This document shows, piece by piece, positions 58,459 to 60,829 of a DNA stretch of 64,000 nucleotides (position 1 is its first letter; every line of letters begins with the position of its first letter). The notes under the pieces were generated by a model. It worked only from the letters and a program-made list of their open reading frames with translations, did no database searches and had not been told where the DNA came from. The position numbers and the translations under genes are program-made. Source of the stretch: Escherichia coli (GTDB lineage Bacteria; Pseudomonadota; Gammaproteobacteria; Enterobacterales; Enterobacteriaceae); assembly GCF_003790525.1 (NCBI RefSeq), contig NZ_CP033635.1. One strand, written 5' to 3'.

Positions 58459-58829
58459 CTATACTTCCTCCGTGTTTTCGATGAGATGTAAGGTAACCAA
58501 TTTTTGCCGATTCGGCTAATGCGTTTCCATTATCAAATCGATAAGTTTTACCTTACAACCTTCGTAAGACAACTTTGTGAACTTTGCACCGCCAGCGGCG
58601 ATAAAAAGTAAAATGGCCCCCTTTCCAGGTGACCGTGTAATCTGAACTACCCTTTGGTATCTTCAGCGCCTGCCTGCAGGCTGAGGTGTTGCCCTTACAA
58701 ATGCAACAACGACGTGGATTACAACACCCTCATAAACAAAGGGCAATCACCTGATCTAAGCTCTTACCTATGACAGTGATAGGTTATGCCTTTTACCCGA
58801 CTTTTGCACTGACTGAAAAGGACAAATTA
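58459..58829. promoter_or_regulatory. divergent ahpC / dsbG control region (OxyR-regulated per literature)
   Basis: 371-bp non-coding spacer between divergent genes; OxyR site expected from established knowledge, not motif-confirmed. Confidence 0.5.
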
Positions 58830-59576
58830 ATGTTAAAAAAGATACTTTTACTGGCTCTGCTTCCTGCAATCGCCTTCGCAGAGGAACTTCCTGCCCCAGT
58901 AAAAGCGATTGAAAAACAGGGCATTACAATCATCAAAACGTTCGATGCTCCCGGAGGAATGAAAGGTTATCTCGGCAAGTATCAGGATATGGGCGTCACC
59001 ATCTACCTGACTCCAGATGGTAAGCACGCTATCTCCGGTTACATGTACAACGAGAAAGGTGAAAACCTGAGTAACACACTTATCGAAAAAGAAATTTACG
59101 CACCCGCCGGACGCGAAATGTGGCAACGGATGGAACAATCCCACTGGCTCCTCGACGGTAAAAAAGACGCGCCGGTCATTGTCTACGTCTTCGCCGATCC
59201 GTTCTGCCCATATTGTAAACAGTTCTGGCAGCAGGCTCGCCCGTGGGTAGATTCTGGCAAAGTGCAATTAAGAACATTGTTGGTTGGCGTTATCAAGCCA
59301 GAAAGCCCGGCGACAGCAGCGGCAATTCTTGCCTCCAAAGATCCCGCAAAAACCTGGCAAGAATATGAAGCCTCTGGTGGCAAGCTTAAGCTAAACGTGC
59401 CTGCAAACGTAAGTACAGAGCAAATGAAAGTGTTAAGCGATAACGAGAAACTGATGGACGATCTGGGGGCAAATGTCACGCCAGCTATCTATTACATGAG
59501 TAAGGAAAATACACTGCAACAGGCCGTGGGGTTGCCCGATCAGAAAACGCTTAATATCATTATGGGGAATAAATAA
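58830..59576 (+). CDS. dsbG: periplasmic thiol:disulfide oxidoreductase DsbG, 248 aa
   Basis: ATG 58830 with AAGGA 7 nt upstream; signal peptide [17 protein letters not shown]; CPYC active site; in-frame upstream extension to 58770 exists. Confidence 0.92.
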
Positions 59577-59581
59577 AAGAT

Positions 59582-59640
59582 AATTCATGGATGGTTGAAA
59601 TATATTCCTGCTTTTCAACCATCCTAAAAAAGCATGAATT
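59582..59640. repeat. nested inverted repeat downstream of dsbG (aattcatg / ggatggttgaaa ... tttcaaccatcc / catgaatt)
   Basis: 12-bp inner stem and 8-bp outer stem read directly; followed by A-run rather than T-run. Confidence 0.45.
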
Positions 59641-59780
59641 GCTCGTAACCCACCTGACAGCTATGCTATTTTAGAAAATCTTAATCCAAAGTTAAGCAGA
59701 AAAACATAACACATATAAATACAACAACATTATTGATCAAGTGAATGATTTATGGAAGAGACAATACAACGGAGTATGTT

Positions 59781-60683
59781 ATGGCTAATCTTTATGATCT
59801 AAAAAAATTTGACCTCAATTTACTGGTTATATTTGAATGTATTTATCAACATCTCAGCATTAGTAAAGCGGCAGAATCATTATATATAACGCCCTCTGCT
59901 GTTAGTCAGTCGTTACAACGTTTACGTGCGCAATTTAATGACCCGTTATTCATTCGCTCAGGGAAAGGTATCGCGCCGACTACAACAGGGTTAAACCTGC
60001 ATCACCATCTTGAGAAAAATCTCAGAGGCCTTGAACAAACGATCAATATCGTTAATAAGTCTGAACTAAAGAAAAATTTTATTATCTACGGTCCTCAGCT
60101 TATTTCTTGTACTAATAACAACATGCTAATCCGCTGTCTTAGACAAGATACTTCAATCGATATAGAATGCCATGACATACTGCTTTCAGCTGAAAATGCC
60201 GAAGAACTGTTGGTTCAACGCAAAACTGACCTGGCAATTACACTACAACCAGTAATTAGCCGCTCTGTCATCTGCATGCCGTTACATACTATTCGCAATT
60301 CTCTTATATGTAGCAACAGACATCCTCGTATTACCGATACCAGTAACTATGAACAAATTATCGCCGAAGAATTCACCCTGTTGATATCTAAATCAGCAGG
60401 GATTGACGAAATTCAAATGGACATAGATGAACGTTTTATGAACCGTAAAGTTTCATTTCGCAGTTCTTCTTTGATGACTATAATTAATAGTATTTCTGTT
60501 ACTGACTTATTAGGCATTGTGCCCACCGAACTGTACAATTTACATCGTGACTTTTTGAAGTTAAAAGAAATAAAACTGGAACAACCTCTTCCTGCGGTTA
60601 AACTTTATATTTCCTATAACAAGGCTTCGTTGAACAACCTTGTCTTCTCCCGATTCATAGATCGTTTAAATGATAGCTTCTGA
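59781..60683 (+). CDS. ybdO: LysR-family transcriptional regulator, 300 aa
   Basis: N-terminal HTH (LNLLVIFECIYQHLSISKAAESLYITPSAVSQSLQRLR); strongly AT-rich coding sequence. Confidence 0.88.
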   Translation: MANLYDLKKFDLNLLVIFECIYQHLSISKAAESLYITPSAVSQSLQRLRAQFNDPLFIRSGKGIAPTTTGLNLHHHLEKNLRGLEQTINIVNKSELKKNFIIYGPQLISCTNNNMLIRCLRQDTSIDIECHDILLSAENAEELLVQRKTDLAITLQPVISRSVICMPLHTIRNSLICSNRHPRITDTSNYEQIIAEEFTLLISKSAGIDEIQMDIDERFMNRKVSFRSSSLMTIINSISVTDLLGIVPTELYNLHRDFLKLKEIKLEQPLPAVKLYISYNKASLNNLVFSRFIDRLNDSF

Positions 60684-60829
60684 TTCATTACCACTGACAA
60701 ATAATATATTACGCATCAATTAATTCATTATGTGAATATAAAATAATGTGCTCTATCTTGCTTCGTTTATCCTATAATTAGCGGATTCATCTCACGAGTC
60801 ACCCCGTAACGTTCAGAGAGCGTTTTTAG

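Follow-up and report, generated by a model that had tools for sequence, protein, structure and literature searches.

The inverted repeat that follows the dsbG stop codon in Escherichia coli is a real palindrome under selection, and it is a single-copy RNA hairpin at the end of the dsbG gene. It occupies positions 59582-59640 of the window, which is the whole 64-kb stretch of E. coli DNA that was analysed. Its likeness to known E. coli transcript ends suggests that it probably acts as a protective stem-loop that defines the 3′ end of the dsbG message without the help of a U-tract, with termination itself being mainly factor-dependent.

Structure and position of the element

An earlier note on this DNA had described a 12-bp inner stem enclosed by an 8-bp outer stem, and both repeats are perfect and can be read directly in the sequence. 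The inner repeat, GGATGGTTGAAA and TTTCAACCATCC (59589-59600 and 59613-59624), has arms of 12 nt that are 100% complementary and separated by a 12-nt loop, and the outer repeat, AATTCATG and CATGAATT (59582-59589 and 59633-59640), has arms of 8 nt that are likewise 100% complementary. G59589 is common to the inner and outer repeats, so that at most seven outer Watson-Crick pairs can form alongside the inner stem. The A-run that the note had seen in place of a T-run is TAAAAAAG at 59625-59632, and it lies directly 3′ of the right inner arm. The outer stem begins 6 nt and the inner stem 13 nt after the dsbG stop codon, and 141 nt separate the end of the element from the start codon (59781) of citR, formerly ybdO. 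Gene coordinates are those of the RefSeq annotation of an identical strain. The features of the element and of its two flanking genes are:

58830-59576, + strand: dsbG coding sequence from the RefSeq start, with stop codon TAA at 59574-59576
59582-59588, + strand: AATTCAT, forming the 5′ side of the outer stem, a stem that is broken in Escherichia sp. E1V33; the next base, G59589, also belongs to the inner stem
59589-59600, + strand: left arm of the inner stem, GGATGGTTGAAA, supported by the repeat, by folding and by covariation
59601-59612, + strand: 12-nt loop, TATATTCCTGCT, hypervariable among E. coli strains
59613-59624, + strand: right arm of the inner stem, TTTCAACCATCC, supported by the repeat and by covariation
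59625-59632, + strand: A-run, TAAAAAAG, at the position of a terminator U-tract and within a 9-nt bulge (59625-59633) of the fold
59634-59640, + strand: 3′ arm of the outer stem, ATGAATT, supported by the repeat and by folding
59781-60683, + strand: coding sequence of citR (ybdO), the next gene downstream, from the open reading frame list and the RefSeq annotation

Fold energies, which the note had proposed as a check, agree with this description. Folded as RNA, the inner hairpin reaches -16.1 kcal/mol with a z-score of -6.45 (none of 200 shuffles is equally good), and the full 59-nt element reaches -18.8 kcal/mol, the outer stem contributing only about -2.7 kcal/mol. Five of the 12 pairs of the inner stem are G-C, corresponding to 42% G+C. 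Perfect inverted repeats of at least 11 bp with loops of 3-20 nt number seven in the window versus the 0.27 expected from first-order Markov simulations. Four of the six other repeats are G+C-rich stems followed by a T-rich tail; the dsbG hairpin is the most A+T-rich of the seven, has the longest loop, and is without a T-tail.

Conservation and covariation across relatives

Loci bearing dsbG were taken from one genome per species, giving 70 loci, and 66 species-representative loci were folded. A stable hairpin starts within about 20 nt of the dsbG stop codon in most of these 66; the loci without such a hairpin include L035, L051 and L055, together with L054 and L071, in which dsbG is interrupted. 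The hairpin is present in Citrobacter lineages that have no citR (L019, L022, L023), and a hairpin also stands at the dsbG end in Pectobacterium, which has neither citR nor ybdN. Since it is kept where citR is absent, the hairpin travels with dsbG and not with citR.

Covariation was assessed over a 9-bp core in 21 in-register hairpins from Escherichia, Citrobacter and Pseudocitrobacter. Within this set 98.9% of cells are paired and compensatory double changes are found in six of the nine core pairs; when the 3′ partner is slid by 1-3 columns as a control, pairing falls to 24-56%. The same nine pairs are predicted independently by RNAalifold. The stem takes the form GGATGGTTG/CAACCATCC in E. 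coli, GGATAACTG/CAGTTATCC in Escherichia sp. E1V33, and GAGTGATTG/CAATCACTC in Citrobacter. All eight one-sided changes (8/8) are G.U or U.G pairs on the + strand, which is the dsbG sense strand, with a single A.C besides, and these + strand G.U pairs would be C.A mismatches on the other strand. The bias towards the sense strand may represent 5-8 independent events and lends support without settling the matter. The arms of the homologous hairpins are 9 to 18 nt apart, and their loops are hypervariable in both sequence and length; within E. coli the core of the stem is invariant and the loop hypervariable in sequence. Covarying arms, sense-strand G.U bias and a variable loop are together what would be expected of an RNA structure on the dsbG transcript and not of a protein-binding palindrome, and they point to selection of the symmetry at the RNA level. 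The earlier note had offered an RNA stability element and an unusual terminator among its options, and both gain from the placement of the hairpin 13 nt past the stop codon, from compensatory changes that span genera, and from G.U pairs that fall on the sense strand only.

The outer stem has a much narrower distribution, being found only in E. coli and its nearest relatives. No compensatory changes were found for it in Escherichia, and it is broken in Escherichia sp. E1V33. Its 3′ arm abuts a conserved TTGCTCG just upstream of the citR promoter, and conservation of the arm may therefore have a promoter-related cause.

Some likeness is also seen in the loops. Two Citrobacter groups with differing stems (GAGTGATTG versus GGGTGATTG) have the loop motif TTCTCAT (alignment columns 18-23) in common, and E. 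coli loops are also pyrimidine-rich (TTCCTGCT, TCCCTGCT). These likenesses may reflect residual ancestry or a loop-specific constraint.

Formation of the dsbG 3′ end and competing explanations

In the window and in K-12 the tail that follows the inner stem is TAAAAAAG, with one T in 8 nt, and the 8 nt after the outer stem hold two. The loop of 12-14 nt in E. coli and the 42% G+C of the stem are both beyond the usual range of terminators. Relatives present a different picture: a T-tract, TTCTTTTC, follows the homologous stem in Citrobacter youngae CCUG 30791 (L011) and Citrobacter sp. wls619 (L013), TTTTCT follows it in Pseudocitrobacter (L027, L030, L067), and in Pectobacterium the equivalent position is occupied by a G+C-rich hairpin that runs into a T-rich tail. 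The T-tracts after the stem imply that this position is a terminator in those relatives. Intermediate tails exist closer to hand, with TTT right after the stem in one E. coli (L006) and TT in Escherichia sp. MOD1-EC7003 (L005). The hairpin resembles a canonical intrinsic terminator in standing directly past a stop codon and in having homologous or equivalent counterparts with T-tracts (Citrobacter L011 and L013, Pseudocitrobacter, Pectobacterium), but differs from one in E. coli by an A-run in place of the U-tract, a stem that is not G+C-rich and a loop longer than 8 nt. It was rejected as a canonical terminator in E. coli for want of a G+C-rich stem with a 3-8 nt loop and of a 7-8 nt U-rich tract; such a tract does follow the homologous stems of L011, L013, L030 and L067. 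The Citrobacter alignment raised the idea that the A-run arose by a small inversion, for which no testable support was found.

A closer parallel is provided by the E. coli Rho-dependent transcripts described by Dar & Sorek 2018 (PMC6061677), which have precise steady-state 3′ ends just past stem-loops that are without uridine-rich tails. Termination in these transcripts is diffuse and lies further downstream, and the stem-loops then shield the message from PNPase and RNase II; a mild excess of C over G is found downstream of them, and the type of terminator could switch easily in evolution through U content (PMC6061677, which cites Peters et al. 2012 for the protective stem-loop hypothesis). 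The dsbG hairpin shares with this class a stable stem-loop just past the coding region and the missing uridine-rich tail, has no upstream A-tract paired with a downstream U-tract, and is accompanied in relatives by U-tract versions, as the idea of easy switching predicts. It departs from the class in its long loop (12 nt) and A+T-rich stem.

The region between the hairpin and citR holds regulatory features of its own. In K-12 the transcription start site (TSS) of ybdO/citR precedes the ATG by 107 nt (PMC4720273), which maps to about position 59678 of the window, and citR has been described as a single cistron with its own TSS (PMC4720273). A role for the hairpin as a 5′ UTR element of citR is thus ruled out, the TSS being downstream of it. 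The conserved box ATGCTATTTTAG (59663-59674), which contains the citR extended -10 TGcTATTTT, reads GTGCTATTTTAG in K-12 and most Citrobacter, and TGCTATTTTA is invariant across Escherichia. The features that bear on termination and on citR are:

59535-59609, unstranded: equivalent of the H-NS-dependent upstream regulatory element of ybdO (K-12 -250 to -176), mapped to the window from PMC4720273
59641-59720, + strand: 80 nt downstream of the element with 17 C versus 9 G, weakly compatible with a putative Rho loading region (expectation from PMC6061677)
59667-59672, + strand: citR (ybdO) -10 hexamer TATTTT, preceded by TGc, from the TSS mapping of PMC4720273; the box is invariant in Escherichia
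59681-59697, unstranded: predicted CitR operator, CTTAA-N7-TTAAG, from PMC9068703 Fig. S2, outside the hairpin

These elements can be arranged into a plausible sequence of events. Transcription from the dsbG promoter would pass the stop codon, and the nascent RNA would fold the 12-bp hairpin, possibly with the weak 7-bp outer stem in addition. With no U-tract behind it, the E. coli hairpin is probably inefficient as an intrinsic terminator. Release of RNA polymerase would occur further downstream, mostly by Rho, in the untranslated, H-NS-bound and mildly C-over-G region upstream of citR; untranslated, H-NS-bound regions favour the action of Rho. The excess of C fades over 140 nt downstream, where the C/G ratio is 1.14 in the window and 0.95 in K-12. 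The tail would next be shortened by PNPase and RNase II as far as the hairpin, which would set a stable 3′ end and may thereby protect the dsbG message. Standing 40-55 bp upstream of the citR -10 and TSS, the hairpin would also keep the dsbG unit apart from citR, which has a promoter of its own and is silenced by H-NS. Two features, the outer stem and the conserved A-run, are outside what the protective stem-loop model explains. Neither a 3′ end nor a Rho region is listed at dsbG in the curated Term-seq data of Adams et al. 2021 (no 6377xx entry), an absence that says little, as these lists are sparse locally (638796, 639668/639670, 643497) and have no ahpF entry, and dsbG depends on induction by OxyR and is weakly expressed without oxidative stress. 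A full-text literature search for dsbG together with terminator, Term-seq, ProQ, RIL-seq or Rho returned nothing relevant.

The main alternative is that the hairpin is itself a weak or non-canonical intrinsic terminator, at which RNA polymerase is released without Rho even though a U-tract is lacking and the stem directly fixes the 3′ end. This is possible but unlikely: the canonical-looking stems with T-tracts in Citrobacter (L011, L013), Pseudocitrobacter and, at the equivalent position, Pectobacterium speak for it, as do the TTT and TT that follow the stem in L006 and L005 and the mixed or transitional cases discussed by Dar & Sorek (PMC6061677), and against it stand the single T among the 8 nt of TAAAAAAG in the window and K-12, the stem of 42% G+C and the loop of 12-14 nt. 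A consensus promoter and terminator scan was also blank for a terminator at the hairpin, though its 3-8 nt loop rule excludes this hairpin anyway. Weak intrinsic termination and a protective stem-loop are not mutually exclusive. It is very improbable that the element works on the minus strand, where antisense transcripts leaving the AT-rich citR region would have it as their terminator or 3′ hairpin, with the composite stem then followed by ATCTTTTATTTATT. The fold of the minus-strand RNA is nearly as stable (-15.2 and -17.9 kcal/mol), a T-rich stretch lies past the outer stem on that strand, and a promoter-like site at 59695-59668 points that way; yet the fold in context has a z-score of only -2.0, the T-rich stretch coincides with the region of the dsbG stop codon and is constrained by coding, promoter-like sites occur at shuffle level (7 found versus 7.5 expected), and the eight + strand G.U cells would become C.A mismatches. 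Least credible of all, and barely worth entertaining, are the ideas that the element belongs to a family of dispersed repeats, whether REP/BIME-like or a miniature mobile element, and that the palindrome arose by chance in AT-rich DNA. The element is palindromic and intergenic and adjoins a spot prone to recombination or IS1 insertion, but of the 5426 complete E. coli genomes searched by blastn 5357 carry it, at a median of one place each and invariably where dsbG ends. An Rfam scan (E <= 10) gave no credible match at the hairpin; its best hit, to a plastid 3′ UTR family, scored 27.6 bits where the gathering score is 52.7. Further copies are absent from the window, where the arm motif with up to two mismatches recurs only at chance level. 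The genome-wide search for similar palindromes that the earlier note had suggested thus found no others, with one copy per E. coli genome; by the note's own reasoning this would speak against the element, but there is no reason to expect further copies of a 3′ hairpin that is specific to one gene. Chance is excluded by the fold z-scores, the count of inverted repeats and the covariation. Like the REP/BIME stabilisers of mRNA 3′ ends, the hairpin is an intergenic palindrome able to block 3′-5′ exonucleases, but it is single-copy, has no REP consensus and has A+T-rich arms.

A function of the symmetry at the level of DNA, as an H-NS nucleation site for citR, a site for some unnamed dimeric regulator, or a cruciform or boundary element, is improbable. 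In its favour, ybdO-lac fusions that lack K-12 -250 to -176 (window 59535-59609) show relief of H-NS-dependent repression in three strains (PMC4720273), the 300-bp segment upstream of ybdO is bound by H-NS in vitro (PMC9141747), and a sharp drop in identity between E. coli citR alleles starts 5 nt past the element. In K-12 numbering the inner stem lies at -196 to -161, and the 3′ endpoint of the deletion falls in the hairpin loop, so that the deletion takes the very A+T-rich end of dsbG, the left arm and most of the loop and is no test of the palindrome as such. H-NS binding to this DNA is plausible, and a role for dyad symmetry in it is unsupported. The left half of the element lies within the ybdO upstream regulatory element, which belongs with the H-NS upstream and downstream regulatory elements of bgl and proU (for ybdO, Higashi et al. 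2016, PMC4720273), but the ybdO element is defined by a 75-bp deletion and not by a palindrome, H-NS recognises A+T-rich curved DNA and not dyad symmetry, and the covariation and strand bias of the hairpin are RNA-like. The hairpin shares dyad symmetry upstream of a LysR-family gene with the operators of LysR-type regulators such as CitR (a T-N11-A dyad), but its arms are 12 nt long, their spacing varies from 9 to 18 nt, and it lies upstream of the promoter. The site CTTAA-N7-TTAAG, predicted by phylogenetic footprinting with ChIP-exo support (PMC9068703 Fig. S2), lies at about +3 to +19 of citR, a position that fits autorepression, and the hairpin was ruled out as the CitR operator, with covarying, variably spaced arms 40-55 bp upstream of this predicted site. 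The protein-binding palindrome of the earlier note fares poorly on these grounds, even if its left half does overlap the H-NS-dependent element. Strand-asymmetric one-sided changes, with G.U on the sense strand, are not predicted by DNA symmetry, and the hairpin persists in loci without citR. As a separate observation, AAGATAATTC (59577-59586), which overlaps the outer 5′ arm and is inside the ybdO upstream regulatory element, resembles tCGATAAATT, reportedly a high-affinity motif of H-NS.

The dsbG-citR locus and wider meaning

The gene order in which ahpC points away from dsbG, citR and ybdN is common to Escherichia, Citrobacter, Klebsiella, Raoultella, Pseudocitrobacter and others, and is also found in Salmonella enterica subsp. 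arizonae and diarizonae; an order so common across the Enterobacteriaceae argues that the segment is not a recent island in E. coli. The earlier note had placed the element at the border of an AT-rich ybdO-ybdN-ybdM segment, which holds for citR and its flanks (about 59600-60800) and not for ybdN, which is not AT-rich. In the two Salmonella enterica subspecies (L020, L021) a G+C-rich, REP-like palindrome, GCCCGATA..GCG..TATCGGGC, replaces the A+T-rich hairpin, 20-70 nt past the dsbG stop and between dsbG and citR.

E. coli citR exists as two deeply divergent alleles (window 59645 to about 61000), which were known in outline from Higashi 2016 (PMC4720273). The window and K-12 alleles are 70-80% identical in DNA and 89% in protein, whereas on either side, in dsbG and in ybdN from about 61100 onwards, identity to K-12 is 94-100%. 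Divergence sets in 5 nt past the hairpin element, and the window allele beyond 59645 is matched by only 1316 of the 5357 genomes. Upstream of citR, the allele of the window agrees with the sequence given for E. fergusonii in Fig. S2 of PMC9068703. The window, which is identical to strain FDAARGOS_497, has K-12-type bases in the hairpin region and a B2-type downstream allele, so that a recombination junction is possible at about 59631-59645. In E. coli PSS-12 (L003, 3019-3050, at about window 59594) an IS1A is present inside the left arm, right after GGATGG, and citR and the 5′ end of ybdN are deleted. Three of 44 strains were without ybdO, with a breakpoint downstream of dsbG, in the survey of Higashi 2016 (PMC4720273).

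Further upstream, the longest dsbG open reading frame starts at 58770 (268 aa), 60 nt before the RefSeq start at 58830 (248 aa), and its 20 extra N-terminal residues (window 58770-58829) precede a signal-peptide-like stretch. The ahpC-dsbG intergenic region contains an Rfam match to the enterobacterial sRNA STnc70 (58603-58696, - strand; 44.1 bits against a gathering score of 40), which lies upstream of ahpC and on the same strand as that gene. Among the Term-seq 3′ ends of Adams 2021 is an 'orphan' at K-12 638796(+), 149 nt upstream of ahpC, which maps to about window 58607, at a T-run.

The dsbG hairpin is most likely a new example of a well-described kind of element, an ordinary conserved gene-end signal and not a new type of element. 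That it is bifunctional, serving dsbG as a 3′ hairpin in RNA and citR through H-NS filament nucleation on its left half and the AT-rich dsbG end, is a long shot. If this were so, the Escherichia-specific A-run and outer stem that replace the U-tract would have made an ancestral intrinsic terminator leaky and dependent on Rho and H-NS, and OxyR-driven transcription of dsbG under peroxide stress could invade and transiently de-silence citR-ybdNM. With regard to studies of H-NS at this locus, some caution is warranted: the deletion that defines the ybdO upstream regulatory element ends in the hairpin loop, and so removes a possible transcription barrier as well as H-NS-binding DNA. For annotation, the hairpin marks the likely 3′ end of the dsbG unit, placed against the citR promoter, the CitR operator and the H-NS upstream element. 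It also offers a comparative example of a homologous stem that is followed by a U-tract in some genera and stands without one in others, as has been proposed for switching between intrinsic and Rho-dependent termination.
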